A DNA stretch of 57,793 nt, from the IMG/VR virus record IMGVR_UViG_3300020043_007152, positions 1 to 57,793 of that record. One strand, written 5' to 3'. The notes beneath the pieces were generated by a model that saw only the letters and a program-made list of their open reading frames with translations, did no database searches and was not told where the DNA came from. This document shows positions 20,478-39,252 of this stretch, one piece after another. A program made the translations under genes and the position numbers. This DNA is from a virus. Its lineage: Duplodnaviria; Caudoviricetes. Positions within the stretch are counted from its first letter, which is position 1. The number at the start of each line of letters is the position of its first letter.

Positions 20478-20723
20478 CGGGCTACAATAAAGGTCGATCA
20501 CTCCTTGAGCAGTGCCGTAGTAGCTGGGGTTAAAGTGGGCGTCGCATTGCCAGTTCTGAGGGCCGCAGGTTCCGTGGTCTCGCATGTTGCCCATATGTGG
20601 TCTCAGTCGCTTTCCGCACTTCGGGCATCGCGGCCAACCGTCTTTCTGGCATCGGAGCAAAGCCCGAACAAGACGGTGATCAGAACCGCCCGGAAGCGTC
20701 TGTTGTGGAGGGGTAGCGTTCAT
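20472..20723 (-). CDS. Cassette gene, Cys-rich protein
   Basis: Bounded by GTTCGGGCT/AGCCCGAAC; CPKC motif. Confidence 0.7.
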   Translation of the reverse strand: MNATPPQQTLPGGSDHRLVRALLRCQKDGWPRCPKCGKRLRPHMGNMRDHGTCGPQNWQCDAHFNPSYYGTAQGVIDLYCSPN

Positions 20724-20753
20724 GACGGGCGGTCTGATACCTCAGCGTTCGCG
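20663..20753 (+). repeat. attC-like site
   Basis: CCCGAAC..GGTGATCAGAACCGCCCG...CGGGCGGTCTGATACC..GTTCGCG, with extrahelical bases in the left arm. Confidence 0.8.
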
Positions 20754-20956
20754 TCATAGATTGCTTGCCACTCCTCCAAGGATTCCCAAGTCCCGCAGCC
20801 GTTGCCGCAGGTTCGCACCCCCTCGAAGTGTGGCCCGCCTCCTAGGTCGTGCGCGGTGGGCGGTTTCGCCCCGCATTTAGGGCAGTCCCACCACACGCGA
20901 ACAATCCGCGGCAGTGAACCGCCCGTTGGCGCTGGTGGCAGATCGGATGCTTTCAT
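20720..20956 (-). CDS. Cassette gene, Zn-ribbon protein
   Basis: Bounded by GTTCGCGT/ACGCGAAC; CPKC...CGNGC. Confidence 0.7.
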   Translation of the reverse strand: MKASDLPPAPTGGSLPRIVRVWWDCPKCGAKPPTAHDLGGGPHFEGVRTCGNGCGTWESLEEWQAIYDANAEVSDRPS

Positions 20957-20985
20957 AGGGCGGTCACTGCGCTTTGGCGTTCGGC
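20896..20985 (+). repeat. attC-like site
   Basis: CGCGAAC..GCGGCAGTGAACCGCCC...GGGCGGTCACTGCGC..GTTCGGC. Confidence 0.8.
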
Positions 20986-21251
20986 AGACCCATCAGCGAG
21001 CAGACCGCCGTGATTTGCTGCGTGATGTAGTCCTGCTTGGCTTGGGCCATCCGCCAGAAGTGCCACCGGATGCACGGGCGCTTGTTGCTGGGTTGTATGG
21101 AGCCGCGACTTGGCGGGCGGATGTGGTCGCCGCGCAGAGCATGGAGCCGCATTTTCACCCGTCGTTTTTGATCTCGGGCCTCGTCCTGCAACTGCCGAAC
21201 AAGCCTATAGAGAGGGACGCCGTGCGCGTCGCTGTTGTATCGCGTTTTCAT
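20964..21251 (-). CDS. Cassette gene, hypothetical
   Basis: Bounded by GTTCGGCAG/CTGCCGAAC. Confidence 0.65.
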   Translation of the reverse strand: MKTRYNSDAHGVPLYRLVRQLQDEARDQKRRVKMRLHALRGDHIRPPSRGSIQPSNKRPCIRWHFWRMAQAKQDYITQQITAVCSLMGLPNAKAQ

Positions 21252-21348
21252 GGTCTATCGTTGGCGGCGTTGGCTGGCTGGCTGGCGTTGTTGGAATTCT
21301 CACGGATTGCGCGTGATAGTTAACATTTTTGTCGGCGAACGACTAGTT
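21246..21348 (+). repeat. attI-like site type A, copy 2
   Basis: GTGATAGTTAACATTTTTGTCGGCGAACGACTAG|TT. Confidence 0.7.
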
Positions 21349-21594
21349 ATCCGAATTCTTTGCGGCGTAGCGGCCTGACTCCCGCTGCCAAAGCGCACGC
21401 TCCGTCAAGGCGAGCAATTCGTGGAGTTCAGTACTTCTGATTCGCCCGCGTTTATACGCGTAGTGGAAAATCCTGCCGATGAAGGCGTAGAGTGGTGCCG
21501 CAAAGATTCGGATAACAAGACGTTGTAGCCAACCGGCTTGCAGTATCTGATGATCTTTGGTTTGCAGTGCGTCAATGTAGTGTCGGTATTTCAT
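21343..21594 (-). CDS. Cassette gene, hypothetical
   Basis: Bounded by GTTATCCGAAT/ATTCGGATAAC; ATG 21594 lies in the attC loop. Confidence 0.65.
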   Translation of the reverse strand: MKYRHYIDALQTKDHQILQAGWLQRLVIRIFAAPLYAFIGRIFHYAYKRGRIRSTELHELLALTERALWQRESGRYAAKNSDN

Positions 21595-21636
21595 GGTAAT
21601 TCGTGGGTGCCGGTGGCTAAACTTTGGCCGTTCGGC
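21510..21636 (+). repeat. attC-like site
   Basis: GGATAAC..GTTGTAGCCAACCGGC...GCCGGTGGCTAAAC..GTTCGGC. Confidence 0.8.
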
Positions 21637-21845
21637 GACTTCGCCTTTTCGCGCCCGATGGCCGATGCTTTCAGCCACAAGCGGCGGAGTTCCAGGTCGG
21701 TTTCTTCTGCCGCCATGCGTTCGAGGTTCTGCGCGGCCCATAGGTAGTTCTTTGCCGTCGCCGAACCATCCACGGCAGCCAACCGCCGGGGCTGTTCGGC
21801 GGTCAATGGCTGTGGTGCCGCTTCTGGAGTGATAGGATTACTCAT
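21591..21845 (-). CDS. Cassette gene, hypothetical
   Basis: Bounded by GTTCGGCGAC/GTCGCCGAAC; ATG 21845 lies in the attC loop. Confidence 0.65.
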   Translation of the reverse strand: MSNPITPEAAPQPLTAEQPRRLAAVDGSATAKNYLWAAQNLERMAAEETDLELRRLWLKASAIGREKAKSPNGQSLATGTHELP

Positions 21846-21892
21846 GGTCTTGTGTGCCGGAGTCCGGCGGTTGCTGCGTTTGGCCGTTCGTG
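21760..21892 (+). repeat. attC-like site
   Basis: GCCGAAC..ACGGCAGCCAACCGCCGG...CCGGCGGTTGCTGCGT..GTTCGTG. Confidence 0.75.
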
Positions 21893-21903
21893 CAGGATGA
21901 TTT

Positions 21904-22440
21904 TCATGCGTCTGCCTCCTGCTGTGATAGACTCTGGCGGCGGTAAAACTCGGCAATCAGCGCCGCGTCCACCATTCCGCTGTGCGGGACTTTGCTCCGA
22001 TTCGATGCCAGGAATGTCTCTTCCGGCCAGAGACGTTTCGCCAACGCGGCAGCAGCCAGTTTGGTTTCGCCCTTAGCAACACGGCCAAGCATAGCGCGCT
22101 GCCATGAATCTTTCGGATTACCGGAACGCACGCGGATAATGCGACGCTGCCAGACAAGCCGGGACATTGCGGCAACGATCACGCCGTAGCTGAATGCCAT
22201 GCTGCGCATGATGGATGCGCGTTCGGAGTGAGCGGGGCATTCCTCCACCACAACAACCGTCTCGCCATCGCGGTGGTAAGGGCTGACTTGTGCATACAAC
22301 ATTCCGGCGGAAATCTCGCCGGTTACGCACAGCGGCATGGGGAATGCGTCCACCAGAAGCCCGGCGTTGGTCTTGCCGGTAGTGCCGGAGAGTATGGCGA
22401 CGCCGCCGGAGACGCCGTTATCAATTCCAATGACGATCAT
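21904..22440 (-). CDS. RuvC-like Holliday junction resolvase
   Basis: MIVIGIDNGVSGG, VVVEE, DAALIAEF. Confidence 0.85.
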   Translation of the reverse strand: MIVIGIDNGVSGGVAILSGTTGKTNAGLLVDAFPMPLCVTGEISAGMLYAQVSPYHRDGETVVVVEECPAHSERASIMRSMAFSYGVIVAAMSRLVWQRRIIRVRSGNPKDSWQRAMLGRVAKGETKLAAAALAKRLWPEETFLASNRSKVPHSGMVDAALIAEFYRRQSLSQQEADA

Positions 22441-22691
22441 GCTTTCTCCTTCCATTGTCCGCAGACGTTGAGGGCTTTCGTTTTGCCATGACCGTAGGCA
22501 GTCTTCCCTTTCGGTGCCATCAGGCAGCAGTAGGTGTATTTGTCGCTGTATTGGTGCCTGTAGAAGTGGGCGCATGTTGCGCAGCGTTTAGCGTCTGTGC
22601 GCTTGGCTTTGCCGGGCTGTGGACTTTTTGCGTAAGTTAGCTTTCGTTCCGAAAGCCACTTCTCCTGTTCGGGTGTGGGCGGGTGTTTCAT
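22437..22691 (-). CDS. Cys-rich hypothetical protein
   Basis: CATCAH...CC...CGQW; overlaps both neighbours. Confidence 0.65.
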   Translation of the reverse strand: MKHPPTPEQEKWLSERKLTYAKSPQPGKAKRTDAKRCATCAHFYRHQYSDKYTYCCLMAPKGKTAYGHGKTKALNVCGQWKEKA

Positions 22692-23803
22692 TTGGAAAGG
22701 GCGGTCAGAGCGGCCAGGGCGGTTTTTACGATCTTCCCAGCCTCCGCGGCTGTGCCGCGGTTGCCGAGTCGCGGGACCGGAACGGCGCGGATGCCTGCGA
22801 TGTAGTGGTCCAGCTTTTCGGCATCGCCTGCGGCTTCCAGCGCGGCAGCGGCGGCGCGTTCGCGTTCCTCCTGTTCACGCGCGGCGCGCTCGACTGCTTC
22901 ACGCGCCTTTCGTTCCTCGGTGGCGGCGCGTTCAGCGGCTTCCTTCTCAGCGCGCAATTTGGCTTCTGCTTCCTCGCGCTCTTTGCGGGCTGCCGCCTCT
23001 TTTGCCTCCTGTTCGGCGCGGGCCTTAGCCATTTCTGCCGCATGGCGTGCGCGCTCTGCTGCTGCCGCCGCTTCCTGTGCCTCACGTTCGGCGCGGGCTT
23101 TGGCCTCCAGTGCGGCTACTTCGGCGAGACGGGCCTTTTCTTTTTCCTCCGCCTCGGCGCGCAAACGCGCCGCTTCCTTCCGGGCTTCCTCTGCTTCGCG
23201 GGCAACGCGCTCGCGCTCCAGTCGCTCTTCCTCGGCCTTCCGAGCGGCTTCTTCTGCCGCCTGCTTCTCGCGCTCAAGGCGCATGGCGTGCAGGTCTTTC
23301 GCGTCCGCAAGCTGGCGCTGATATTGATCTTCGGTGAGCTTGCCGAGATCAACGGCGAGGGGACCATTGAGGAATGGGGTAATTTCAGCAGTGCGGCGCT
23401 GGCGTGTCTCCTCTTCGAGGCGAAGGCGCTCGTTCTCCTCGAAATCCTCTATGGCCTTGAGGTGTGCCTCTGCGGCTTCGCAGCGCTGGCGAATGCCGCC
23501 GTTAGCTCCGTCAATGTGGCGTCCAATCTCCAGAATATCGGCCTTGAGGGCGGTTTTGGCCTTCTCTGCCTCACGGCGGGCGACAGCGAAACAGTCAAGT
23601 CTCAGGCGGCGCGCCTCTTTAGCCAACTTACGGCGCTCGTCCGCTGGCATTTCGGCGCTGATCGTCATCGCGAGCGCGCGGGCTTCGTTTTCGTCCAGGA
23701 CTTGGCAGAACGGCTTGAATGCGTCTAGCGCATTGGCGCTGGCTGCTGGAATGGGCAGAAGCTCTGCCTCAACGGGTATTGTAATAGGTAGTTTGGCGCT
23801 CAT
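22688..23803 (-). CDS. Coiled-coil phage protein
   Basis: 371 aa with a long A/E/R-rich helix. Confidence 0.8.
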   Translation of the reverse strand: MSAKLPITIPVEAELLPIPAASANALDAFKPFCQVLDENEARALAMTISAEMPADERRKLAKEARRLRLDCFAVARREAEKAKTALKADILEIGRHIDGANGGIRQRCEAAEAHLKAIEDFEENERLRLEEETRQRRTAEITPFLNGPLAVDLGKLTEDQYQRQLADAKDLHAMRLEREKQAAEEAARKAEEERLERERVAREAEEARKEAARLRAEAEEKEKARLAEVAALEAKARAEREAQEAAAAAERARHAAEMAKARAEQEAKEAAARKEREEAEAKLRAEKEAAERAATEERKAREAVERAAREQEERERAAAAALEAAGDAEKLDHYIAGIRAVPVPRLGNRGTAAEAGKIVKTALAALTALSK

Positions 23804-23861
23804 GGCGCGGCACTTCTACAGCCGGAATCCGGGAGCGCAAGAAAAAACTCGCCAGCAAAGA

Positions 23862-23898
23862 AAATAATGCTTGCAATGCAAAAAGACAGCGCCAGAAT
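23862..23898 (+). promoter_or_regulatory. Putative promoter, copy 2 of AATAATGCTTGCAATGCAAAAA
   Basis: TTGCAA-N16-CAGAAT at the divergence point of two operons. Confidence 0.55.
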
Positions 23899-23903
23899 CC
23901 CGC

Positions 23904-24071
23904 ATGGCTACAGACAAACCAAAACAACCGTGGCGTTCGATTACGATTCGCCTGAACCCCAAAGAATACGCCTCGCTTATGGCGCGCGTGGCGAAGCTAT
24001 CCAAAGGCTTCGCAAAGACCAATCCGACGGCGCTCGTAAAAAGCGAGTGGCTGGAAGGCATCAAGACATGA
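23904..24071 (+). CDS. Small putative ribbon-helix-helix regulator
   Basis: RSITIRLNPKEYASL; first gene after the promoter. Confidence 0.5.
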   Translation: MATDKPKQPWRSITIRLNPKEYASLMARVAKLSKGFAKTNPTALVKSEWLEGIKT

Positions 24072-24769
24072 TTACCATGCAAACACAACCACTACACGAG
24101 AAATTGCGGCTCGCCGCGCACATCACCGAGCACAAGCTGCCGTGGGAGCACAGGACTAAACCATTCTCAGATTTCGCTTTAGCGATTATGTCGTCTCCGT
24201 TAGACATTCTGCGCGTGAACGGGGAAATCCGCCTCGCAGACGGCTGGCTTCCGCACTACGGCGGGGAATGCCCGGTTGAGCCTGCGAGCATACCGAAAAG
24301 GCTATTCCGCGATGGGGTTATCTCCTCACTATTAAACGCATCCGACTGTTGCTGGGAAAGCGACGCGCCAAGTCCCGTCATCGCCTACAAGCCCGACCCA
24401 TACGGTAAATTCCGGCAGGCGATTGCGGACGGGAAGGAGGTGGAATTTAAGATTAGTGAAACTTTATGGAAAACGGGGGCTTTTCTTGATTTCTGTTATC
24501 CACCCAACCACTACCGCATCGCGCCGGAGAAGAAGCGCGTCCCGCTCGGGCCGGAGGATGTTCCGCCGGGGAGTGTCGTAAAATGGCAAAACGGTTACTG
24601 GAGCATGGTATTGCAAATTTGCGATAGCGGTATTGATATTAAGGGGCACGGATACGAAACATTTACTGGTCTATCTGATCCCCGCTGGCAAATCAACCGC
24701 CCGAAGCACCGAGACGCGGACGGCAACCCGACTCTATGGGAGTCGTGCTACAAGGAGGTCGAGGTATGA
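24068..24769 (+). CDS. Hypothetical phage protein
   Basis: ATGA overlap; W.PHYGGECPV motif. Confidence 0.7.
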   Translation: MITMQTQPLHEKLRLAAHITEHKLPWEHRTKPFSDFALAIMSSPLDILRVNGEIRLADGWLPHYGGECPVEPASIPKRLFRDGVISSLLNASDCCWESDAPSPVIAYKPDPYGKFRQAIADGKEVEFKISETLWKTGAFLDFCYPPNHYRIAPEKKRVPLGPEDVPPGSVVKWQNGYWSMVLQICDSGIDIKGHGYETFTGLSDPRWQINRPKHRDADGNPTLWESCYKEVEV

Positions 24770-25005
24770 TAACCGAACTGCGTTACGATGACGGCTCCGG
24801 CGGGCATACCCTATATTCCAGTGACGGCTGGGTAATCCTATATTCCAGTGACGGCTGGGTAATATCGTTACAGTCCGAGCCGCTGGGAGTTCACGAATGC
24901 TACGTCGCCTATCATCGCGACAACGGCACAACTATTACAATCTCCGCCCGCGTAGTGCTTTTCATACGCGAACAAGAGCCAACCGCTAAAGCCGCCACAC
25001 CATGA
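24766..25005 (+). CDS. Hypothetical protein with 9-aa tandem duplication
   Basis: LYSSDGWVI x2. Confidence 0.6.
   Translation: MITELRYDDGSGGHTLYSSDGWVILYSSDGWVISLQSEPLGVHECYVAYHRDNGTTITISARVVLFIREQEPTAKAATP
24810..24863 (+). repeat. Perfect 27-bp tandem duplication
   Basis: CCTATATTCCAGTGACGGCTGGGTAAT x2. Confidence 0.95.
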
Positions 25006-25370
25006 TACTGCCAGCATCTACAGCCAACGACACGCCTGCTATGACGCGCGAAAGAACCCGCCAGCGCAGCATTGAAGCGCACTACCTCGCACAATGCGTG
25101 GAGTGCCCTATGTGCGGTGCCAATAGTAATGGCCTGGAACTCCGCGAGGTTCCGCCGTGGCTCCACGGCCACGACCCGCAGAGCCGCATCGTGTGCGACT
25201 GCGGAGTGTGCGGACCTACCGAGTCCTCGATAGACGAAGCGGTGGATTCCTGGAACACCCGGACCAGCACCATCGCGCCGACGTGGCCGCGGCCTTTCGC
25301 GCTCGGATTTGTCATCGGCTGCCTGTCCAGCATCGCTGCCGCCATCCTATTCATTCTTTTCGGACTATGA
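25002..25370 (+). CDS. Lar-like (restriction alleviation) Zn-finger protein with C-terminal hydrophobic helix
   Basis: CPMCG...VCDCGVCGP...EAVDSWNTR. Confidence 0.65.
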   Translation: MILPASTANDTPAMTRERTRQRSIEAHYLAQCVECPMCGANSNGLELREVPPWLHGHDPQSRIVCDCGVCGPTESSIDEAVDSWNTRTSTIAPTWPRPFALGFVIGCLSSIAAAILFILFGL

Positions 25371-26398
25371 GCACAACAGCACTGACACACATGCCACAAC
25401 ACGGCGATCAACTTGCCATCACTGAGCCGCAACTGATCGAGGTTCTCCGCGCCAGCCTTTACCCGGACGCCGCGCCAGAAAGCGTCGCACTTGTGCTTGG
25501 CTACTGCCGGGCGGCAAATCTCGACCCCATGCAAAAGCCTGTCCACATCGTGCCTATGTGGAGCAAGGCTGCGGGAAGCATGAGGGATGTCATCATGCCG
25601 GGTATTGCGCTCTACCGAATCCAGGCGTCCCGCAGCGGGCAACTCGCCGGTATCGGGCAACCGGAATTCGGTCCAGACAAGACCGAGAACATAGGCGGGA
25701 TCACGGTCACTTACCCGGAATGGTGCCGGGTTGTCGTGCGCCGCCGTATGCCGACTGGAGAAATCGCCGAGTTCATTGGCCTGGAGCGGTGGAGAGAGAA
25801 CTACGCGCAGAAGGGAGGCAAGGAAAGGTCCATTGCTCCTAATTCAATGTGGGAGCGGCGTCCCAGCGCGCAGCTTGCCAAGTGCGCAGAATCGCAGGCA
25901 TTGCGCCGGGCATTCCCCGAAATGTGCAGCGCCCCGACTGCCGAGGAAATGGAGGGCAGGCAATACCAAGAGCGCGACGCGACTCCAACAAAGCGCCAGC
26001 CTGTGCCGGACCCTTTCCAAGCTGCGGCGCTTCCGGCGCTGCCCGCTCCAACGTGGCAGTCTCTCTATCCCCACGCATGGGGAGACGAGCCGGTGCCGGG
26101 GCGCGACGGCAAGACCTACGGGGAGATCGCGGACGCTGACGACGGGGAAACCGCGATGCGCGACTTGTGGCGCAACGACCCATCGAATCCTTGGCTGTGC
26201 GCATGGAGCGCGCAGTGGATAGAGAAAGCAGCAGCGCAGGTCCGCGATTTCGACTTGGCCAGCTTCAAGGCTCAGTTGGGAGTGCCGGATATTTTCGACT
26301 GCACACCGAAGCAACTTCGCACAATGGCTGGCACGCTGCTTAAGTGGCTAGCCCAACAGGCCGACAACGACGCGAAGGAGGCGCAGGAAGCGCAATGA
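25367..26398 (+). CDS. bet: Bet-family single-strand annealing protein
   Basis: YCRAANLDPMQKPVHIVPM...QLAKCAESQALRRAFP. Confidence 0.92.
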   Translation: MSTTALTHMPQHGDQLAITEPQLIEVLRASLYPDAAPESVALVLGYCRAANLDPMQKPVHIVPMWSKAAGSMRDVIMPGIALYRIQASRSGQLAGIGQPEFGPDKTENIGGITVTYPEWCRVVVRRRMPTGEIAEFIGLERWRENYAQKGGKERSIAPNSMWERRPSAQLAKCAESQALRRAFPEMCSAPTAEEMEGRQYQERDATPTKRQPVPDPFQAAALPALPAPTWQSLYPHAWGDEPVPGRDGKTYGEIADADDGETAMRDLWRNDPSNPWLCAWSAQWIEKAAAQVRDFDLASFKAQLGVPDIFDCTPKQLRTMAGTLLKWLAQQADNDAKEAQEAQ

Positions 26399-26835
26399 AC
26401 ATCCGCAAACTTACCATAAAGGAGCGCGTGCAAGCCCGCAAGATTCTAAGGGCGCAAATCGCGGGGGCGAAGACAGTCCTTACTGAAATACCACGCGACC
26501 AATGGCCCTCCCCTGATTCGTCACATCCAAAGCGCCCGGCAAAAGTGTGGCTATCGAAGACGTTTCTCGTTCAAGCGTCCGTAGAGGAGCACGACATTGT
26601 TCGGCTATCCGTGAACCGAACTGAGCTTGTAATTGAGACAGGCCACTGGCAAGACGGCATCACTTGGGACGAACTCATGCGCGTGAAGAAGGAATGCGGG
26701 TACGGCGACCGTTGGGCAGTAGAAGTGTTCCCTCCCGACGACGAAGTCGTCAATGTCGCCAACATACGACACCTGTGGTTATTGCCGAATGCCCCCACCT
26801 TCGCCTGGAATAGCGCCAACCCTCCACAACAATGA
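26395..26835 (+). CDS. Conserved phage hypothetical protein
   Basis: ITWDELMRVK...AVEVFP...VNVANIRHLW. Confidence 0.8.
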   Translation: MNIRKLTIKERVQARKILRAQIAGAKTVLTEIPRDQWPSPDSSHPKRPAKVWLSKTFLVQASVEEHDIVRLSVNRTELVIETGHWQDGITWDELMRVKKECGYGDRWAVEVFPPDDEVVNVANIRHLWLLPNAPTFAWNSANPPQQ

Positions 26836-27515
26836 ACCCGCTCGCCAAAATACACACCGACCTGATTCAAGGCTCCGACGAATGGTTCCGCGCACGGTTG
26901 GGACGCGCGACCGCCAGCCAGGCCAAGCGCATTATCACGGCAGCGAAGGGAGACTATTCCAAGCAGGCACCCGATTACGCTGCCGAACTTATTGCGGAAT
27001 GCCTCGCTCCGAATGAGCCGCCCTCATTTGCCGGGAATTGGGCCACTGACCGAGGGAATGAAATGGAGCCTCACGCTATCGCTGCGTTCGAGGCGCAAAC
27101 CGGCCTGAAAGTCCAGAAGGTCGGCTTCATATCCGTTCGCCTCCGCGAGGACAGCCCGGTGGACATCGTAGGCCTTTCGCCTGACGGACTGGTGCTGGAC
27201 TCGGACGGCTTCGACTACTGTGCCGGCCTCGAAGTGAAATGCCCGCTGCGCACACAGCACGTTCAGAATGCGCTCACCGGAGAGCTTCCCGACGACTACA
27301 AGCAGCAGGTCCACTGGAGCCTTGCGCTGACAAAGCTGCCCGAATGGCATTTCTGGTCGTGGCATCCAGACATACAGCCGGTTCACTACGTTGTCCGACC
27401 AGACGCATACACGGAGAAAGTTTCCGCAGCTATTGAGCAGTTTGTCTGCGAATACGTGGCCATGCGCACGCGACTTGTGCCCAAGCTGCAACTTCCGCCG
27501 GGCCTGAGCGAATAA
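26832..27515 (+). CDS. YqaJ/lambda-exonuclease family protein
   Basis: QGSDEWFRARLGRATAS, SPDGL, EVKCP, QVHW. Confidence 0.92.
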   Translation: MNPLAKIHTDLIQGSDEWFRARLGRATASQAKRIITAAKGDYSKQAPDYAAELIAECLAPNEPPSFAGNWATDRGNEMEPHAIAAFEAQTGLKVQKVGFISVRLREDSPVDIVGLSPDGLVLDSDGFDYCAGLEVKCPLRTQHVQNALTGELPDDYKQQVHWSLALTKLPEWHFWSWHPDIQPVHYVVRPDAYTEKVSAAIEQFVCEYVAMRTRLVPKLQLPPGLSE

Positions 27516-27545
27516 TTCACCAACCCAAAACACGCCAAAACTACC

Positions 27546-28136: not shown

Positions 28137-28137
28137 T

Positions 28138-28605
28138 ATGAAGACAACCAAAGAAGAACGCGCCGCCCGTCTGCATGGCGTGGAGATCGGCGACGAATGC
28201 GCTGACCCGCAAATCATCGCGGACGCGAAGGAGAGCAATCTCCTGATCGTCTATGGCTACAGCGACGACATCTGCGAGTTTGGCGGGGCGTTTCGAGAGG
28301 AGTGTTACCCCAACAGGAGTGGCAAGATGGCAATCACGCGCAGCGGCAAGGCATTTGACGAAGATGCTGTCCAGGAGGCGTTGGAAACACTGGAGAATGC
28401 ACTTGGCGTCACAGTGCCTATGCCAGAACTGCTGGACGTGACGGCGCATTGGTGCAAAACAGCCCTGGATGGCAGAGAGCCATCATGGCATTACACGACA
28501 AGCCTGCCTCACGCGACGTTCGATGTGATGGAAGACGGCGAGCTTTACTGCATAGGGATCGTCATTGACCTGAGCGAACAGCCGACCACGGAGGAAGCGC
28601 CATGA
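28138..28605 (+). CDS. Conserved phage hypothetical protein
   Basis: VYGYSDDICEFGG...PHATFDVMEDGELYCIGIV. Confidence 0.8.
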   Translation: MKTTKEERAARLHGVEIGDECADPQIIADAKESNLLIVYGYSDDICEFGGAFREECYPNRSGKMAITRSGKAFDEDAVQEALETLENALGVTVPMPELLDVTAHWCKTALDGREPSWHYTTSLPHATFDVMEDGELYCIGIVIDLSEQPTTEEAP

Positions 28606-31925: not shown

Positions 31926-32511
31926 CTACATCACCACCGGCCCCGGCTGGACGGAAGCGGAGTCGTCAAACGCCACCGAAGCCCGCGAATTGGCGATGGA
32001 AGCAGCCACTCACATGTTCCGACACGCTCCAGGCTACTGCCTCGCTTTCATTGGCCAGACCACCTGCGGGAAAACATTTCTCGCCCGAAAGCTCAAAAAG
32101 TGGTGGAGCGAAGTTGCGCGCTTTGCCGGTGGAACGGAATGGAAATACGATCACGGCGAGTGGATAAGCTGGCCGAATCACACCTACGAGGAAGTCGAGG
32201 AAAAGGGGCAGACCACCGGCCTGCTTGTCATTGACGAGGCGGGACGAGGCCGGACCGGCGCGGTAGCCTCCACCGCAGCCGTGGACCGCCTCATCGAAAC
32301 TCTTTCCATCCGCGAGCACCGCAGGCTGTTTACGGTCGTAACCGCGAACTGGACGGCTGACTGCGTGCCAGACAGGGCCTTGCTGGAGCGACTTCGCCGC
32401 CCGCCCGCCCGCTGCCTGCAATCGCCTGTATCCCTACGCCCCTACAACAAGCGCCTGCCAGACGAGACCGCCGGGACGGGCAGAATCTTCACCGCAACTG
32501 AACAGCCTTGA
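31807..32511 (+). CDS. DnaC/IstB-like AAA+ helicase loader
   Basis: Walker A GQTTCGKT, Walker B LLVIDEAG, TVVTAN. Confidence 0.8.
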   Translation: MAIQHIQDIALRRASPPTPEPDPAPLRGAAKAKLISTVSDYITTGPGWTEAESSNATEARELAMEAATHMFRHAPGYCLAFIGQTTCGKTFLARKLKKWWSEVARFAGGTEWKYDHGEWISWPNHTYEEVEEKGQTTGLLVIDEAGRGRTGAVASTAAVDRLIETLSIREHRRLFTVVTANWTADCVPDRALLERLRRPPARCLQSPVSLRPYNKRLPDETAGTGRIFTATEQP

Positions 32512-32717
32512 AACGCCGCCACAGCCAACCCAAACGGAAGCAAAAACGCGCCCAATGCTCCGAAGCCGCCCGCGCCGAATACCTCGCCCGTAATGGCTTT
32601 CCGTGCCAACGCTGCGGCCAATTCTTCAACACCCCCCTCGAAATCGAAGCACACCGCCGGTTCTGCGAGCCGGACAACTCTCCACCCACACCCACACCCA
32701 CACCGCCATGCCCGTAG
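32508..32717 (+). CDS. Small Zn-finger protein
   Basis: CQRC...H...C. Confidence 0.45.
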   Translation: MKRRHSQPKRKQKRAQCSEAARAEYLARNGFPCQRCGQFFNTPLEIEAHRRFCEPDNSPPTPTPTPPCP

Positions 32718-33238
32718 AACTCCAATTCGCCAGCCGCCCCGCAAATCCATACCGGCCACCCCCGCAGCCGCCTTCCGCGTCCCTCCTCACGCCCCGCTGG
32801 AACGAAAGGGACTCTGTTGACCACATCGCCGGCATCCTCCGGCGTGTAGGACTCATCAACCCTCTCGCCCTCGCGCCAGATACGAGAACCGCCCTCTCAC
32901 GCACGTCCAGCGCCTCCGACTGGCTCGCATGGCTCGCCGCCGCCGGATACCCCCGAGACGCAGCGCAGCGCCTATCCGTCGCGATTTGCGCCCTCGCCGC
33001 CCCTTTAGGCTCAGAGCCGGAACGCGAAGCCTCAGAAATTCAGGCGGCCATACGCTCCTGCGGCTTCACCCAGGCCGAAATCGCCTCCGCCAGCGGCATC
33101 ACCACCAGCGAGATCAGCAACTTTGCCACCGGGAAGCGCCCTCCTACCCCTCAGAAGCAGGAACGCATCTACACAGCTATCGCCACCCTCCGCGAGCGCC
33201 GAATGGACGCCCTCGCTTCTCGTAAGGGCGACACTTAA
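32708..33238 (+). CDS. XRE-type HTH protein
   Basis: GFTQAEIASASGITTSEISNFATGKRPP. Confidence 0.8.
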   Translation: MPVELQFASRPANPYRPPPQPPSASLLTPRWNERDSVDHIAGILRRVGLINPLALAPDTRTALSRTSSASDWLAWLAAAGYPRDAAQRLSVAICALAAPLGSEPEREASEIQAAIRSCGFTQAEIASASGITTSEISNFATGKRPPTPQKQERIYTAIATLRERRMDALASRKGDT

Positions 33239-33507
33239 GGCATCTGCGGCTCCCTTCCAACTTCTGGGAGCCGCATTTTGCGCACCCGGACGGCCTTCCT
33301 GTGCGTCCAGGCTCCCGGCCCGCAGCTTTGGCTCGTTCCTCGCGCTCCCGGCGCTGTGTCTCAGCTTGTCGCGTGCTCATGGGGTAAATATCAAGTCAAG
33401 CAACCCCTCGCCAATCAGGGTTAGCAGCGCGAAGGCTATCATTATTGCGAAAATAAGGCAGGATTTTAGGCGGTCGGGCGGTTCGCTCATAGGTTTTTGG
33501 GTTGGAG

Positions 33508-33897
33508 TTATGCGCAAAATACCCGCTCACCAGAGCCGTATCGGCTGGATATGTCGTCGGGGCTAAGTCCGGCCAAGCCTAACCGCAAGGCGCTGGCCCC
33601 TAAATTACCCCATTGGGGCCAAAACGGCGGGTGGTTGTCGTAGCTGGATAGATACACCTCAGCCAATACCCTGCGCTGCGCATCCGTGACATGCTCTGGC
33701 ATGGGGCATCCATCGGCGACATGCAGATATACACTGCCAACCTGGTTGCGTATCCCGCCGCGTGTTCGCGTGTCAGTATAGGACACTGAGCCGCCGGGAG
33801 TTATGGTTACAATGACACCTCCGCGCTGTGGTTGAAACTGCGGATCGTAATGGTAGATAACGCATCCCTCAAGGATTATGTCGTGCGGTTCGCTCAC
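33508..33897 (-). CDS. Hypothetical protein
   Basis: GTG start overlapping stop of the upstream minus gene. Confidence 0.5.
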   Translation of the reverse strand: MSEPHDIILEGCVIYHYDPQFQPQRGGVIVTITPGGSVSYTDTRTRGGIRNQVGSVYLHVADGCPMPEHVTDAQRRVLAEVYLSSYDNHPPFWPQWGNLGASALRLGLAGLSPDDISSRYGSGERVFCA

Positions 33898-34199
33898 GGC
33901 TGGCCTCCTTCCGCTTTGGCGATGGCGGCATCCATCGCTTCCTGAATTTCCGGCCAGCCGTCTTGCTCTTCCATGTAGCGCGTATGGTCGGCTATTGCTT
34001 TGAGGACGGCCAGCAACTCCGGCGCGGCGGCGATTAGGCGGGCGTCGGCAAGGAGGGTGTCCGCGCGGCGACTGGATTCGACAACACAGATGGACGCGCC
34101 TCCAAGCTCGGATGAACGGCTGACGCATATCTCCTGCTCGCCATTAGCGGCTAGGTTTGAGAGATGCCACGGCCCGGGTGTGTGTTTCGGTTCGTTCAT
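33894..34199 (-). CDS. Conserved phage hypothetical protein
   Basis: KHTPGPW...ADARLIAAAPELL...AAIAKAEG. Confidence 0.85.
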   Translation of the reverse strand: MNEPKHTPGPWHLSNLAANGEQEICVSRSSELGGASICVVESSRRADTLLADARLIAAAPELLAVLKAIADHTRYMEEQDGWPEIQEAMDAAIAKAEGGQP

Positions 34200-34343
34200 G
34201 GTGGTAGTTTGTTTGTAGTTTGGCCGCCGGTAGTTCATGGCGACGAGCCACTAAAGCACAGCCACAACAAAAGCGCAACGGTTTTCTGCAAGAATTATTT
34301 CCCCCTTTGACTTTCCCCTTTCAATCCGCCATCTTTCGCAACT

Positions 34344-34886
34344 ATGAGAATACCGCAGACTGGTGAGCATTCGGGGGCTGCCGAACCGGAAAAGGGTCGC
34401 GGGCGCGCACGCGCGACGGAACTTGTTGAGACAGTGGAGCTTGTGCTGGAGACAGGCGGGCCATGCCACGAAAGGGAAAGGAAGCTGACGAAGCTGGAGC
34501 AGAGGCATTTAACGGCAAAAGCCGATGTAACAGAGGCGGTATCAGAGGGTTACGAATTTGCGGAGGCGCTGAGGCATGAGTTGATACGGCAGTTGCCGGC
34601 GGATGAGTGGGCAATGGAGGTTGCGAGCTTATGCCGCCATGAGCAGCCGATGGTTAAGGAGAGAGGGTGCCGCCTATGGGCCGAATACACGGCTGGGAAG
34701 CCGCTGACACGCACCGAGAACAAGAGCATGGAAGTCCACTACGACGCTCCCCTGGACCCAGCGATGCTCACGGCTACCCCGGCGGCAGCGGAAGCGATGG
34801 CGCGCACGCTGGCTGCCACACCCAGCGGGCGCGAGGCACTGGCCGCGATACTTGGCGTTGAGATACCAGACGCGGTCGCGAAGTGA
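34344..34886 (+). CDS. Hypothetical protein, possible terminase small subunit
   Basis: Helical 180 aa; RLWAEYTAGKP resembles TerS-like C-termini (weak). Confidence 0.45.
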   Translation: MRIPQTGEHSGAAEPEKGRGRARATELVETVELVLETGGPCHERERKLTKLEQRHLTAKADVTEAVSEGYEFAEALRHELIRQLPADEWAMEVASLCRHEQPMVKERGCRLWAEYTAGKPLTRTENKSMEVHYDAPLDPAMLTATPAAAEAMARTLAATPSGREALAAILGVEIPDAVAK

Positions 34887-34972
34887 TACAAATCCGGCGC
34901 GAAAATGAGGTTTGCCCACGGGGCCGACATCGCGCTTAGTATCGGAACGCCTGAAAAAGCGTGGGAAATGTC

Positions 34973-35012
34973 GGAAAAAGCGATGTGGGAATCCCCCATA
35001 GCGCGCCAGGCC
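34973..35012 (+). repeat. ~38-bp direct repeat, copy 1 (copy 2 at 37913-37950)
   Basis: GGAAAA(A)GCGATGTGGGAATCCCC(C)ATAGCGCGCC(A/C)GGCC. Confidence 0.85.
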
Positions 35013-35074
35013 GGGAGTGCCGCGGGGGAGATGTCCCCCGCGGATCGGCAGCCCCGCGCCCCCTCGCTTCGCAT

Positions 35075-35149
35075 AACTAGTTGTTCAGCGACAAAACTGT
35101 TCAGTATTACGCGGATTCCGAGGCAAAACAGACACACAGGCACCCCATG
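35075..35149 (-). repeat. attI-like site type A, copy 3
   Basis: Plus strand AACTAGTTGTTCAGCGACAAAACTGTTCAGTATTACGCGGATTCCGAGGCAAAACAGAC. Confidence 0.65.
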
Positions 35150-35997
35150 ACTCTCCAGACCCTCCACGACCTGTTATCCCGCTGCCCTCAGCCGAACACC
35201 ACCCCGCCCAGCCCTAACAGGGTGATGAGCGCATTCCGCAGAAAATCAGCAGGCACGTCGGCGATGTCAGCAATGGTGAGCATGAGGGAAAAAGAAAGTC
35301 GTTAGGCCCGGGGCAGTTTGATTCCGGCGAAGGCATAGAGCAGCGCCGTCGCCGCCGTGCGCCCCAGCCCCGTGCGCGACATCACCGCAGGCGTATAGAC
35401 CCACTGCACCGGCCGCACGATGCGGCCCGGGCTCACGATGAACGAGTGCCCGTTCGGATGTGGTGTGATCGTCGCGTCGAAGCGGAAACACAGTTGCTGA
35501 GGATTGTCTGGATGCGGCAGCCCTGCTGCGAAACTTGATTGTCCATAAGGCTTCGGTGCCTGATCAGGATTTTCTGGAAGGGGCTGTAGGCTGTCAGAAG
35601 TTCCTCGACAGGCTGCCGGGGGTATCCCCCGTGCTTGGGCGGCGATTTTGGCAAATCATGGAAAATTAGAGCGCGCCGGTAATCTCACGAATCTACCGGG
35701 CGCGCTTCTGGGCACGTTCCTTTGCCAGTGCTTCTTTGGCGTCGCGCAGACGCGCCCGCAGTTCGCCTGATTCCAAGATGGTTTCGGCATTGAATGCAGG
35801 GGCTTGATTGGTGGTGGCGTCCACGGCGCGCTTTGCCGTCCTAGATGGGTCTTTAGCTGGCATTCTACACCTTGCCCGCATTTCAAGGCATTCGCAACAG
35901 CGGCGTTTGCGTGTCGCAGGAAAGATTAGTGAGTCGTGCCGATTTTGCGCGTTGACATACTCTCCGGGATATTCCATGAGTCCTAAACTCAAGACTC

Positions 35998-36450
35998 ATG
36001 GACGCAAAAACCGCACTACTCGCCGAGCGCCAGCGCATCATCAAGGAACTCGCAGACCTTGATAGCGTGCTCGCATCGCGCTTTGGATGGACTGCCGACA
36101 AAAAGGCGGAACCACTAAGCGCCCCGCCCGCCGCTCCTGAGCGCGAGGAGGCAAAGCCTTTTGCTCTCGATTCAGTAAAAACGCCTGCAAGGAGGCGGAC
36201 GCCGCCGACTGACGCGGGGCGGGCCGAATCTATCGCCTATGCACGCGAGGCGGACGAATGGCTGGAAACGGTCAGCGGCCAGTTCAGCGTTGTACAGTTC
36301 CGCGAATGGCTGCGCGCCAAATACGGGGATGCTTTGAATGATGCTTCTATCAAAGGCCCGTTTCGCGCTCTCGAACGATCCGGCAAATTGAAGATTGTCA
36401 CGCCGGGGGCTGGTCGCCGCCCCACGGTCTATACCAAGCCAAATCAGTAA
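35998..36450 (+). CDS. Hypothetical protein, possible C-terminal winged helix
   Basis: 150-aa ORF ending LERSGKLKIV..GAGRRPTVY. Confidence 0.7.
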   Translation: MDAKTALLAERQRIIKELADLDSVLASRFGWTADKKAEPLSAPPAAPEREEAKPFALDSVKTPARRRTPPTDAGRAESIAYAREADEWLETVSGQFSVVQFREWLRAKYGDALNDASIKGPFRALERSGKLKIVTPGAGRRPTVYTKPNQ

Positions 36451-36602
36451 TTTCTTCCAACCTCACCCAACATGACCGCATTATTAGTCCACGGGGGCCG
36501 GTTCAGCCGATGCCTGTCGCCGTAAAAAGAAAACCCGGCGCTGACTTCCGAACTTTAGCGAGGAAGGAGTCAGCGCCGGGCAAGGCAGTTCAAGAACAAC
36601 AT

Positions 36603-36674
36603 GCGCTCGTAGTGTAACGGAAAACATCCGACCGTCGTAAGTCCGGGATGCGGGTTCGATTCCTGCCGGGCGCG
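36603..36674 (+). tRNA. tRNA-like gene, possibly Thr(CGT), with defective anticodon stem (pseudo-tRNA)
   Basis: Acceptor GCGCTCG/CGGGCGC; D stem GTGT/ACAT; T arm GCGGG-TTCGATT-CCTGC; loop TCGTAA. Confidence 0.55.
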
Positions 36675-36681
36675 CTTTTCT

Positions 36682-36909
36682 TCAAAGAACTCCAAGAGCT
36701 TTATCGGGTTCTCCGCTGTTTTCAAGTGGAATCCGACTGGCCCACTGCAACAATAGCGCATCCACGGTGCCGCTCAAGTTGCTGGTCCGTTTGCGGGCAA
36801 GCGTCACGGTAGTTGACGACAGCGTAAGCGTGACGCGCTCTTTCCCCTGAGGCTTTCGCCCCGCTCCTTCGCGACGACCGCCGCGCGCAGGTTTGGTAAG
36901 TGGGTTCAT
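36682..36909 (-). CDS. Small putative RHH/antitoxin-like DNA-binding protein
   Basis: RGGRREGAGRK...VTLTL...NLSGTVDALL; divergent from the transposase. Confidence 0.6.
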   Translation of the reverse strand: MNPLTKPARGGRREGAGRKPQGKERVTLTLSSTTVTLARKRTSNLSGTVDALLLQWASRIPLENSGEPDKALGVL

Positions 36910-36988
36910 TTGAAAAGATATGCAGTAAATCAGTTGACTTTGCGGGTTGTTTGATACAGTATGCACTGAATCGAATCCGTCAACACAA

Positions 36989-37891
36989 ATGAGCGCACCA
37001 CTTTCCAAAGAGAAGAAGGCTTTAGTTCTTGCGATGCTGTCAGAAGGAACCGCTATCAACGCGGTTTGTCGCGTGCTGCATGTTGGCGTGGTGCAAGTGC
37101 TGCGGCTTATTCTGGACGCCGGGGCCGCGGCTCGCGAGTGGCACACTGAGCATGTCCGCAACCTGACGTGCGAATACATCGCGGCGGATGAGGTTTGGAG
37201 CTACATCGGCGAGCATGAAGCAAGGCTCCCAAAGGGCAACGTGAAGGACAAGGAGAACTGGCGCGGTGATTGCTGGCTACTTTCTTCCTCCTGCTCTGTG
37301 AGTAAGTTGGTGATCGCATGGCGTAGCGGTGAGCGCACGGAAGAAACCGTCTCGCATCTTTTCTCGGACGTTCTGGACTGTGTTCCGGGGCGCTTCCAGT
37401 TGACCACCGATTGCTTCGGAACCTTTATCAAGCTGATGCGAAAGCTGCCGGAACGCGTTTCCTGTGCGACTGAGCTAAAAGTCTTTGGCGGCGCGAGCGA
37501 CCCCGGCAGCTTCAAGAAAGTGAACCGTTTACTGGGATGCGAGCGCCGCCCAATCAAGGGAACGCCTGAGATGAGTAAGGCAACAACCGCGTTCCAAGAA
37601 CGTCTGCACCTGACCTTTCGGCAGCAGATGCGCCGGTTTGGACGCCGCACCATTGGTTACTCCAAGACATACGCGCACCATACCGCTGCAATTAGTCTGT
37701 TCATCTTCATCTACAATTGGTGCCGTCGCAGTGAGGCCAAAGCCCTGAACGGGCAAACTCCCGCAATGGCCGCTGGCTTGGCAGACAAGCCGTTTAGTTT
37801 AGAACGGCTGGTGGAGATCACAGAAGCCTACCTCAAGAAACAAGAGGCGGCTAAATGGGAAGCGGCTTTCGCTGAGAAGTATAACCACTAG
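36989..37891 (+). mobile_element. IS1-family-like DDE transposase (element ends not identified)
   Basis: N-terminal HTH; DEVWSYIG, LTTD, ERLHLTFRQQMRRFGRRTIGYSK, YNWCR, TPAMAAGL. Confidence 0.85.
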
Positions 37892-37910
37892 AATTCACCG
37901 AAAGTGACGC

Positions 37911-37992
37911 CGGGAAAAGCGATGTGGGAATCCCCATAGCGCGCCCGGCCTGGTCCATGAGGCCGTCAGTTCGAGTCTGGCCGTCCCGACCA
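37911..37992 (+). pseudogene. Degenerate tRNA (Pro-like) with intact 3' half
   Basis: T arm GTCAG-TTCGAGT-CTGGC followed by CGTCCCG-A-CCA; 5' CGGGA can pair with TCCCG. Confidence 0.5.
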
Positions 37993-38033
37993 ACATTATA
38001 CGCGAAGGCGTATTTGCGGGCGGGGAGTTCGCG

Positions 38034-38157
38034 GGGTAACGGCCAAAGCTGAGCCGCAGCGGCAATAAACATCAACGACGAACAAAACGATCCCATGAAC
38101 GAAGCACTCGAAATCCCCCAGCCGACCACGCTGTCGGCTCCAGCGCCGTTGTTATCT
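38034..38157 (-). repeat. attC-like site
   Basis: Plus strand GGGTAAC..GCTGAGCCGCAGCG...CGCTGTCGGCTCCAGC..GTTATCT. Confidence 0.8.
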
Positions 38158-38307
38158 GAAATCGCTGAAGCGGTCGGAGCCATCGCGGAACTTCAGGGAA
38201 GGGCCACAGGACAGGGGCAGCACGTTGTCGCGGCCAAGTTACAGTGTGCCCGCGATGAACTGCGGTCGGCAGTGGGGTCATGGAACCACGGCATTTCAGA
38301 TAACTAG
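38095..38307 (+). CDS. Cassette gene, hypothetical
   Basis: Bounded by the perfect 12-bp pair GTTATCTGAAAT/ATTTCAGATAAC. Confidence 0.7.
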   Translation: MNEALEIPQPTTLSAPAPLLSEIAEAVGAIAELQGRATGQGQHVVAAKLQCARDELRSAVGSWNHGISDN

Positions 38308-38373
38308 TCGTTCACCAACACAATTGTTCACTATCACACAGATTCCGATGCAAAACAGACGCACAACGCTATG
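38302..38373 (-). repeat. attI-like site type A, copy 4
   Basis: Plus strand AACTAGTCGTTCACCAACACAATTGTTCACTATCACACAGATTCCGATGCAAAACAGAC. Confidence 0.7.
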
Positions 38374-38634
38374 ACAGAAACACTACAGAGACAGACGGCG
38401 GGCGATTGCCTGACGCGGCTTGTTCGCGGATCACTACCGGTTTTAATCGAAGCTCTATACGCAGCCTCCCAATTTGAGGAATCTTACGCTGACGCCCATA
38501 CGCTTAAGCCGTGGGAAATGACTGACGAACTCAAAAAGACCGCAGAAAAGGCGCGGGCAAAAGCAGGAAAATACCTAAAACTCAGGAAAGAACTAATATC
38601 CGCGAACGATAAACAGAAACACATCCATGAGTGA
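38371..38634 (+). CDS. Cassette gene, hypothetical
   Basis: Bounded by GTTCGCGGAT/ATCCGCGAAC. Confidence 0.7.
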   Translation: MTETLQRQTAGDCLTRLVRGSLPVLIEALYAASQFEESYADAHTLKPWEMTDELKKTAEKARAKAGKYLKLRKELISANDKQKHIHE

Positions 38635-38693
38635 ACTACCGAAGAACCAAGACCTGCCCGAGGCTGTTGCTGCCTGCATCTGATTTGTTCAGC
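38601..38693 (-). repeat. Degenerate attC-like site
   Basis: Both R boxes and one good L arm (CCTGCATCTG); the other arm is eroded. Confidence 0.5.
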
Positions 38694-38716
38694 CGCGCCC
38701 CAATTTACCAAACATT

Positions 38717-38905
38717 ATGAAAGTGAAATTCTACGTGGATTCAGGAGCAAATATCCACTCAAAACGCTCCCAAATACTCGATACAGTGAAAGACCTCGGA
38801 ATGCAGGAGGGCGAATGGGAATCCATGCCAGAAGATCAACGCTACGAATACGTTGACTCATGGGTATCAGAGAAGATCGAACAAGGATACGAGGAAGTTA
38901 GCTAA
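38717..38905 (+). CDS. Cassette gene, small acidic protein
   Basis: 62-aa ORF between attC-like sites. Confidence 0.7.
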   Translation: MKVKFYVDSGANIHSKRSQILDTVKDLGMQEGEWESMPEDQRYEYVDSWVSEKIEQGYEEVS

Positions 38906-39017
38906 CGACCAAGCGCAGCCGGCCCCGGAACCAACCTCAACCCCGCAAGAAAATGAATGATCTACCTGTAACGAACATCCCGGACTTGAAGGTGTCGGCT
39001 GACGCGACTGGTTCGCC
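38900..39017 (-). repeat. attC-like site
   Basis: Plus strand AGCTAAC..GCGCAGCCGGC...GTCGGCTGACGC..GTTCGCC. Confidence 0.75.
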
Positions 39018-39192
39018 GAAGCATGTCCATAAGCCGTGCGAATGGAAAAATGGCTTCTTTGGCTGGACATGCACGCACTGCAAGATGCTCGCCGAGACCG
39101 AGGACGAAACCTATGAAATCGAGGCAGCCTGTGAGCGCGTCGCTGCGGAGAACGCTCCGGGTGAGCGACGCGGCGAATTACCAATGACATGA
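38953..39192 (+). CDS. Cassette gene, hypothetical
   Basis: Bounded by GTTCGCCG/CGGAGAAC (1 mismatch). Confidence 0.65.
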   Translation: MNDLPVTNIPDLKVSADATGSPKHVHKPCEWKNGFFGWTCTHCKMLAETEDETYEIEAACERVAAENAPGERRGELPMT

Positions 39193-39252
39193 CTATGCCG
39201 AAAACCAAACGAAAACCGATGGCCCGCGTTCGCTCCAGCCGGATTGTTGTCT
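39147..39252 (-). repeat. attC-like site
   Basis: Plus strand GGAGAAC..TCCGGGTGAGCGACGCGG...CCGCGTTCGCTCCAGCCGGA..GTTGTCT. Confidence 0.8.

Follow-up and report, generated by a model that had tools for sequence, protein, structure and literature searches.

Putative coding attC cassettes of a phage, read from the attC bottom strand, with start codons in the hairpin loop and stop codons supplied by the neighbour

Introduction

The virus record IMGVR_UViG_3300020043_007152 of IMG/VR (Duplodnaviria; Caudoviricetes), which was analysed here as a whole (the window; 57,793 bases, estimated to be about 91% complete), contains nine gene junctions, spread from 20663 to 39252, that can fold into imperfect hairpins resembling the attC recombination sites of integrons. 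The question raised by this locus is what these hairpins are and why the genes around them begin and end within them. A preliminary description proposed that they are attC sites that double as modules for translational coupling and encode the N-termini of the proteins that follow. As set out below, the hairpins and their open reading frames (ORFs) probably form cassettes of a host attC family that are read from the attC bottom strand, start within their own hairpin and receive their stop codon from the neighbour, an arrangement that may couple the translation of successive genes.

Nine hairpins at gene junctions

Read in gene sense, a site begins with xxxxAAC and a spacer of roughly 9 nt; then come a stem, the loop holding the ATG and the second, complementary stem, in which one T is extra, and the site closes with 9-10 nt of spacer and GTTxxxx. 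The AAC and GTT triplets are present at the two ends of all nine sites. The stem sequences vary from site to site and their complementarity is kept, each fold comprising an R-box stem, an unpaired central spacer, an L stem and a variable terminal loop. In each half of the genome the hairpins are oriented with transcription. They are listed here with their scores against a covariance model of host attC sites, which is described in the next section.

attC s1, 20663-20753, minus strand: AAC 20749-20747, loop ATG 20723, GTT 20669-20667; 3' arm with a bulged T, a 6-bp helix and a bulged C; 45.5 bits, E 2e-10
attC s2, 20896-20985, minus strand: loop ATG 20956, upstream stop 8 nt ahead of the ATG; 51.2 bits, E 5e-12
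attC s3, 21510-21636, minus strand: ATG 21594 in a 72-nt loop, ATGA overlap; 49.1 bits, E 2e-11
attC s4, 21760-21892, minus strand: loop ATG 21845, ATGA overlap with a 21-codon bridging ORF; 42.8 bits, E 1e-9
attC s9, 29298-29358, plus strand: short, 18-nt loop, no loop ATG; 23 bits, E 4e-4
attC s5, 30051-30150, plus strand: loop ATG 30096, ATGA overlap, 17-bp helix, bulged T; 31.9 bits, E 1e-6
attC s6, 38034-38157, plus strand: loop ATG 38095, no overlap with an upstream ORF, GTT out of frame; no match at E<=1
attC s7, 38900-39017, plus strand: loop ATG 38953, upstream gene ending with TAA within the AAC box; 33.2 bits, E 6e-7
attC s8, 39147-39252, plus strand: loop ATG 39189, ATGA overlap; no match at E<=1

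The preliminary description placed an ATG in the loop of eight of nine complete sites, and all eight of these codons do lie between the arms of an imperfect hairpin, the ninth site being 29298-29358. The ATGA overlaps with the upstream stop, which had been called frequent, occur at five of the eight sites (s1, s3, s4, s5 and s8); at the other junctions the stop lies 8 nt before the ATG (s2) or is separated from it by a gap of 203 nt (s6) or 47 nt (s7). The recurring peptides that had been pointed out (HRLVR, PRIVR, QRLVI, TGMVR and SRIVV) are the in-frame reading of the conserved spacer and the GTT box, and the peptides ascribed to half sites are present as well, YRLVR in gene 20964-21251 and TRLVR in gene 38371-38634. 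In s1-s5 and s8, 1-18 nt separate the end of the stem from the ATG.

A strict descriptor (AAC...GTT, a 6-bp helix, a 1-nt bulge and a helix of at least 5 bp), derived from the phage sites themselves, found seven AAC/GTT pairs representing six sites, whereas 100 dinucleotide-preserving shuffles gave 0.03 on average and at most 1.

Identity of the hairpins as integron-type attC sites

The independent test was the covariance model, R1, which was built from 14 attC sites of the host order standing in arrays beside intI and included no phage site; a MAFFT alignment of eight phage sites was of too low a quality in the loops for modelling, and host sites were used instead. The Verrucomicrobiales are the probable host order, judging from an IS1-family transposase that is 62% identical to one in a metagenome-assembled genome titled Verrucomicrobiales bacterium and from the match of the attC family itself. 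Integron integrases above the curated TIGR02249 cut-off were found in 131 of 301 sampled Verrucomicrobiales genomes, and the host loci used here (L106-L121) comprise eight intI genes with flanks of up to 20 kb on either side. The strict descriptor detected 15 sites in these loci, with the same conserved spacers as in the phage sites, and R1 detected 64, all sites of each of six arrays lying on one strand. One of these loci (L121, host genome G007) has a large array with 39 R1 matches, all on one strand and co-oriented with intI, in the 20 kb directly downstream of that gene, the integrase being in the arrangement called 'inverted'.

Applied to the window, R1 recovered seven of the nine sites (E 5e-12 to 4e-4) at identical coordinates and always on the gene-sense strand, with no further match at E<=1. 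Moreover, each of the 11 units that the sites delimit lies between the halves of a perfect inverted repeat (GTTxxxx...xxxxAAC, 8-13 bp) that differs from unit to unit, as it should if the boxes have to pair in the circular form of a cassette. The units form three arrays with four, two and three hairpin sites. No tyrosine recombinase was found in the window, and none in a second phage genome with such sites (G302, see below), by a search with TIGR02249, so that both phages are integrase-less. The arrays of the window therefore correspond to CALINs, that is, at least two co-oriented attC sites without an integrase, and not to a complete integron, in which an intI gene and an attI site would adjoin them.

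The constant orientation of the hairpins along transcription in both genome halves, together with the lack of a phage integrase, would also suit elements that act in the RNA (processing sites, attenuators or terminators) and merely look like attC. Such elements, however, would not be expected to match a model trained only on attC sites adjacent to intI, to carry inverted repeats of 8-13 bp specific to each unit, or to occur as single units in other contexts, as described below; in addition, no T-run follows the stems, and an Rfam scan of the window returned only tRNA, with no family matching the hairpins. An RNA-level origin of the hairpins is thus highly improbable, and on sequence grounds the nine hairpins are integron-type attC sites of the Verrucomicrobiales chromosomal-integron family.

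No such site was found in the examined parts of two relatives of the phage (L001, with a 52% identical resolvase, and L002, with a 46% identical terminase), and a scan of viral_contigs with a two-part site pattern returned 83 stretches, of which none of the 82 examined as loci folds as a site.

Reading frames of the cassettes

The three arrays lie at 20.4-21.9 kb on the minus strand and at 29.1-30.4 kb and 38.0-39.4 kb on the plus strand. Spacing from box to box is 137-222 nt, with one cassette of 706 nt. Their ORFs are as follows.

21591-21845, 21343-21594, 20964-21251, 20720-20956 and 20472-20723, minus strand: five cassette ORFs, each within an inverted repeat of 8-11 bp
21842-21907, minus strand: bridging ORF of 21 codons; its ATGA start overlaps the stop of the resolvase gene, and after passing the AAC box of s4 it terminates in the ATGA that starts the s4 gene
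29105-29311, 29488-29763 with 29794-30099 (one 706-nt cassette) and 30096-30368, plus strand: cassette ORFs, with inverted repeats of 8, 11 and 13 bp
38095-38307, 38371-38634, 38953-39192 and 39189-39413, plus strand: cassette ORFs, with a further ORF, 38717-38905, in between

The reading frame includes the downstream AAC as a codon in 11 of 11 cassette ORFs (p 5.6e-6) and GTT in 8 of 11 (p 0.009); the distance from AAC to the stop codon is 0-12 codons. In all nine hairpins of the window, the stop in the AAC frame lies at or before the loop ATG or at most 5 nt after it. This stop overlaps the loop ATG in six of the nine, as ATGA in s1, s3, s5 and s8 and with an 8-nt overlap in s4 and s7, and comes early in s2, s6 and s9. 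Where a hairpin unit follows, the stop comes after 1-12 codons that run through its 5' arm (in s9 after the single codon of GCT-TGA). Where none follows, the stop is supplied by one of two modules, T1 (three copies), which reads AAC-TAG, or T2 (two copies), which reads AAC-NAC-TGA.

T1 copy A, 21252-21345, minus strand: directly after an AAC box, with the in-frame TAG; about 45 nt conserved, followed by an A/C-rich leader up to the next ATG
T1 copy B, 38305-38370, plus strand: array-end module
T1 copy C, 20385-20474, minus strand: array-end module
T2 copy 1, 30363-30405, plus strand: array-end module with the in-frame stop AAC-NAC-TGA
T2 copy 2, 39408-39486, plus strand: array-end module

T1 and T2 both begin immediately behind the AAC box that closes an array, and an ATCAC(A/G)C element is common to them. 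Both may be promoters of the phage or a landing site similar to attI, with an AAC-N5-GTT core; neither is flagged by a sigma-70 scan, so that the promoter label is a guess, and the T1 module pattern had no match in viral_contigs. Downstream of T2 copy 1, the gene 30406-30699 contains a degenerate box (30437-30451) with an ATT core, at 30440-30451, in place of GTT. Except for its first base, this box repeats the opening 10 nt of the s5 GTT box, which lies 296 nt upstream, and it is complementary to the AAC box that stands between the two.

Translation starts within the hairpins

Where translation starts can be judged best for the gene that begins in s5. Its family comprises 16 proteins (that of the window and 15 relatives), and in their alignment conservation extends from the V encoded by GTT to the N encoded by AAC; length and content vary before the V, and the tails differ after the N. 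Distant relatives, which have neither cassette end, start 1-9 residues ahead of a conserved LPxRL core. In the cassette-form proteins this core begins 4 residues after GTT and no start codon lies in between, so that the start in the s5 family must be upstream of GTT, inside the attC. Starts mapping downstream of the GTT core, the outcome that the preliminary description had named as contrary to it, are therefore not an option for this family. Three close relatives have the loop-encoded residues in common with the window protein and end in different C-terminal tails. No member was found in 401 sampled genomes of the host order, a result that by itself shows little.

The s3 family (three proteins, 68-95% identity) gives a similar picture. 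The residues encoded by loop and arm are conserved together with the body, and after the N the proteins end in a stop, in AELRHGGGGKV or in SADV, a pattern that fits units carrying their own hairpin and borrowing their stop.

The sequence context of the loop ATGs agrees with that of the phage as a whole. No Shine-Dalgarno sequence was found across the genes of the window, the leaders of which are A/C-rich and G-poor and often read acc-ATG-aaa, and the loop ATGs have the same type of leader. Leaders of this kind fit a host with Shine-Dalgarno-independent initiation.

Polarity of the cassettes and position of the crossover

The orientation of the hairpins bears on which part of each junction belongs to which gene. 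On the recombined bottom strand the extrahelical bases stand opposite the AAC arm, according to the available part of Nivina 2016. The phage gene-sense strand has this bottom-strand geometry: a 1-nt bulge lies on its GTT arm in 6 of 6 strict sites, and the pattern of bulged T, 6 bp and bulged C is seen in the folds of s1, s2 and s5. The proximal extrahelical base is C in the phage sites, compared with usually G in the same part of Nivina 2016. The geometry implies that the phage ORFs are inverted relative to canonical cassettes, and by integrase rules the crossover would be expected at the AA|C of the 5' arm. The ORFs between the attC sites of the host arrays are on the top strand, including 2 of 2 with Pfam matches (Metallophos; DUF1254 with DUF1214); the canonical arrangement of a top-strand ORF upstream of its own attC is thus found in the host and not in the phage.

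Contigs from four metagenome runs were compared with positions 20001-40000 of the window, which they cover in part. A look for RNA data over 20401-30400 gave none, one run labelled RNA-Seq being probably DNA. A 613-nt contig contains 20739-20983, the s2 unit from AAC box to AAC box, with 1 difference and with flanks unlike the window. In contigs from three runs that contain the cassette 29352-30057, identity ends at 30058-30060, directly behind AAC 30055-30057, and the match does not run on through the s5 hairpin to GTT 30144. One further contig has the s3 unit, 21338-21633, and diverges beyond the short AAC-N5-GTT core. The paralogous genes of s1 and s2, moreover, have similar upstream hairpins and dissimilar downstream ones.

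The preliminary description implied the opposite assignment, with a crossover at G|TT, so that the attC of the upstream cassette would lend an ATG, an N-terminal peptide and translational coupling to a start-less downstream cassette. The frame of GTT in 8 of 11 ORFs would suit this assignment, as would the segment before the V, which is the most variable part of the s5 family, and one short contig that diverges right after GTT 29352-29354. The inverted repeats alone fit both crossover points, but polarity and contig breaks separate them: bulge polarity and the strand-specific matches of R1 imply cleavage at AA|C, the contigs from three runs end at 30058-30060 and not at 30144, and the s2 unit occurs elsewhere from one AAC box to the next. 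Furthermore, the residues encoded in the loop go along with the gene body among the s3 proteins and three s5 homologues, whose C-terminal tails vary, and the s1 and s2 paralogues resemble each other in their upstream and not their downstream hairpins. Exchange at G|TT is accordingly improbable.

Bulge polarity, the strand of the R1 matches, the breaks of contig identity and the co-conservation of loop residues with the gene body all point to a crossover at AA|C. Hairpin, loop ATG, N-terminus and ORF would then constitute one cassette, to which the neighbour gives a stop codon and a short C-terminal tail. Taken together, these structural and coding claims can be held with considerable confidence.

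A second phage and the host arrays

A homologue of the s5 gene is present in a second viral record, G302 (57,022 bases, with direct terminal repeats), which has no terminase similarity to the window. R1 found eight sites in G302 at E<=0.03, on both strands; one further site given by the strict descriptor was left out of the tally. In seven of the eight, the loop ATG is in frame with the core, opens a frame of more than 45 codons and is overlapped by a stop in the AAC frame. This geometry of AAC-frame stop and loop ATG is found at 13 of 17 sites in the two phages versus 1 of 64 attC sites in the host loci (Fisher 8e-11), although the host sites are not independent, 39 coming from one array, without which the host count is 1 of 28. 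A loop ATG that is in frame and open occurs at 12 of 17 phage sites versus 2 of 64 host sites (Fisher 7e-9).

The ORF starting in G302 24840-24933 and that starting in window 20663-20753 both begin with MNAT and both have a CPxCG zinc-ribbon motif. Cassette families beyond that of s5 thus appear to be common to the two unrelated phages.

One host chromosomal integron array (L115, positions 700-1700) contains reversed units. A gene for a helix-turn-helix protein reads in frame through the AAC box there and stops in the loop, and one reversed unit has an ORF that starts in the attC loop, as in the phage type.

A model for the expression of the cassettes

In the model proposed here, a cassette consists, in gene sense, of the C of the AAC box, the 5' arm, the loop with the ATG, the 3' arm, the GTT box, the body of the ORF and a terminal xxxxAA. 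Roughly residues 5-27 of the ORF are encoded by the 3' arm and the GTT box. The ORF has no stop of its own; the downstream AAC serves as an Asn codon, and the next unit gives a stop in the same frame, mostly overlapping the next ATG. The sequences show that the sites are members of the host attC family, on which strand and in which frame the genes lie, that starts stand ahead of GTT and that variation goes by whole cassettes with breaks at AAC boxes; movement by the host integrase and an effect of the hairpin on translation are inferred. Movement of the units is attributed to the host integrase, as suggested by the single units in other contexts and by the breaks of identity at AAC boxes.

Initiation without a Shine-Dalgarno sequence is thought to need an unstructured start region, and a stem 1-18 nt before the ATG is inside the ribosome footprint and within the reach of initiation. 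In the messenger, the hairpin may consequently block independent initiation, and a ribosome that finishes the upstream ORF in the loop will have melted the 5' arm and could reinitiate. From this geometry alone, the chances that the hairpins function in translational coupling seem evenly balanced. Much of the preliminary proposal is retained in this model, namely the integron-type attC sites, the starts in the loop, the N-termini encoded by arm and GTT box and the geometry of termination and reinitiation; what has to be given up, with a crossover at AA|C, is the idea that start and N-terminus are lent to a downstream cassette.

The sites might instead be real attC sites that have been overgrown by phage genes during compaction of the genome, ATGA being a general mode of packing and the hairpin having no role in translation. 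ATGA is found at 11 of 43 other co-directional junctions in comparison with 5 of 8 at the sites, a weak enrichment (Fisher p 0.09), the folds of the sense strand are not favoured, and an early stop in the AAC frame is present at 3 of 9 sites (s2, s6 and s9). Compaction would not, however, readily account for the overlap of AAC-frame stop and GTT-frame ATG at 13 of 17 sites of two unrelated phages versus 1 of 64 in the host, for the bridging ORF upstream of s4 that has ATGA at both of its ends, or for stems that in s1-s5 and s8 end at a distance from the ATG that places them inside the ribosome footprint, as known in general. Compaction alone is therefore rather unlikely.

Several observations tell against the cassette model as a whole. 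The ATGA overlaps may, as said, reflect ordinary gene packing, and RNA folds of the sense strand are not more stable than those of the antisense strand (sums of -312.9 versus -364.3 kcal/mol). Among the lines of evidence for identity, the strict descriptor goes back to the phage sites themselves, R1 (E<=1) misses s6 and s8, the host order is assigned by two features only, the 62% identical IS1 transposase and the sequence match of the attC family, and the host comparison is dominated by one array. As to the crossover, one short contig departs from the window at 29354, directly at a GTT box, some s5 homologues differ wholly on the N-terminal side of the V, which would also fit exchange at GTT, and the contig breaks fall 0-9 nt from AAC boxes, by which an exact crossover is supported and not fixed.

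Genomic context of the arrays

Beyond the arrays, the window encodes a large terminase, a RecT-type annealing protein and a Holliday-junction resolvase, and also the IS1-family transposase and a DUF1376 protein. Searches of Pfam and PHROGs with eight ORFs associated with the sites gave nothing except two weak matches.

An ORF at 60-12731 encodes a DarB-like protein of 4223 residues with matches to antirestriction, methyltransferase and helicase families and a lysozyme-like segment at about residues 460-640. The DUF1376 gene (31023-31925) holds 5-6 tandem copies of an 11-nt unit at 31364-31440, which are iteron-like, as in a replication origin. A 27-nt direct repeat in two tandem copies (24798-24851) is located in the intergenic region after gene 23867-24769. 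The segment 36603-37891 contains a tRNA-Thr (CGT) gene followed by the IS1-family transposase gene. In run X3, a related phage is represented by a 34.5-kb contig in which 35198 is joined directly to 38382, without this segment and without the s6 cassette.

Relation to known systems

Phage attC clusters are not new. CALINs have been reported in phage genomes, and IntI1 recombined 5 of 6 phage attC sites assayed, according to the available part of Qi et al. 2023 (PMC9892861). The likeness to the present case consists in co-oriented attC arrays in phages without an integrase; that part of the paper makes no mention of bottom-strand ORFs, starts in the loop, protein-coding arms or a frame convention, and its supplementary tables might list the orientation of ORFs.

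Effects of attC and attI sites on translation are likewise known from class 1 integrons. ORF-11 and ORF-18 of attI1 and short ORFs in attC sites extend across the crossover and take their stop from the neighbouring cassette (Hanau-Bercot; Jacquier et al. 2009, as treated in the accessible text of the review PMC8876359). The same text describes how termination and reinitiation carry ribosomes to the next start and how attC stem-loops in the messenger hinder ribosomes. The 21-codon ORF at 21842-21907 behaves in a comparable way. ORF-11 and ORF-18 are, in that account, non-functional leader peptides on the top strand with a Shine-Dalgarno sequence, whereas in the phage full-length bottom-strand genes start in the loop without one, and every cassette ORF is without a stop of its own. 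Synthetic attC sites embedded in protein-coding sequence (Nivina et al. 2020, PMC7439510, in the part available) resemble the phage sites in combining attC structure and reading frame in one DNA; there the combination was engineered, and here it is natural, recurrent and joined with a gene boundary.

The chromosomal cassettes of the host loci have in common with the phage cassettes the AAC and GTT boxes, the conserved spacers, the bulged T and the 6-bp helix. They differ in that their ORFs stand between the attC sites on the top strand and that an open loop ATG overlapped by an AAC-frame stop occurs in 1 of 64. The start-associated sequences of cluster K mycobacteriophages are reportedly repeated motifs at the translation starts of some phage genes; unlike the phage attC sites described here, they are said to lie upstream of the start, to be non-coding and not to be recombination hairpins.

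A full-text literature search found no description of bottom-strand coding attC sites with a fixed frame convention, and a full-text search on attC and translational coupling returned only two papers on class 1 integrons and the review PMC8876359. As far as the accessible parts of these sources go, phage attC clusters, effects of attC and attI on translation and engineered coding attC sites are thus already known. New are the ORFs on the bottom strand, the start in the loop as a rule, the absence of a stop codon of the ORF's own and a frame convention common to two unrelated phages.

Implications for phages and integrons

In the usual integron cassette, an ORF is followed by a non-coding hairpin and both are read on the top strand; in the phage cassettes, two reading frames and a gene boundary are written over the hairpin on the other strand, under a frame rule by which ORFs stay intact next to any neighbour. 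These sites would provide natural examples of coding attC sites, which have so far only been engineered. It may tentatively be suggested, at somewhat less than even chances, that phages of the integron-rich Verrucomicrobiales keep a pool of mini-cassettes with coding attC sites, which the host integrase shuffles between unrelated phages under a universal frame convention. If this is true, any order of cassettes would give intact, translationally chained ORFs, a natural plug-and-play assembly of operons for small accessory genes, and the bottom-strand genes would be silent when captured by a host integron. If it is the host integrase that moves the units, phages would be using the bacterial integron machinery to shuffle their own accessory genes, which would link phage mosaicism with integron biology.

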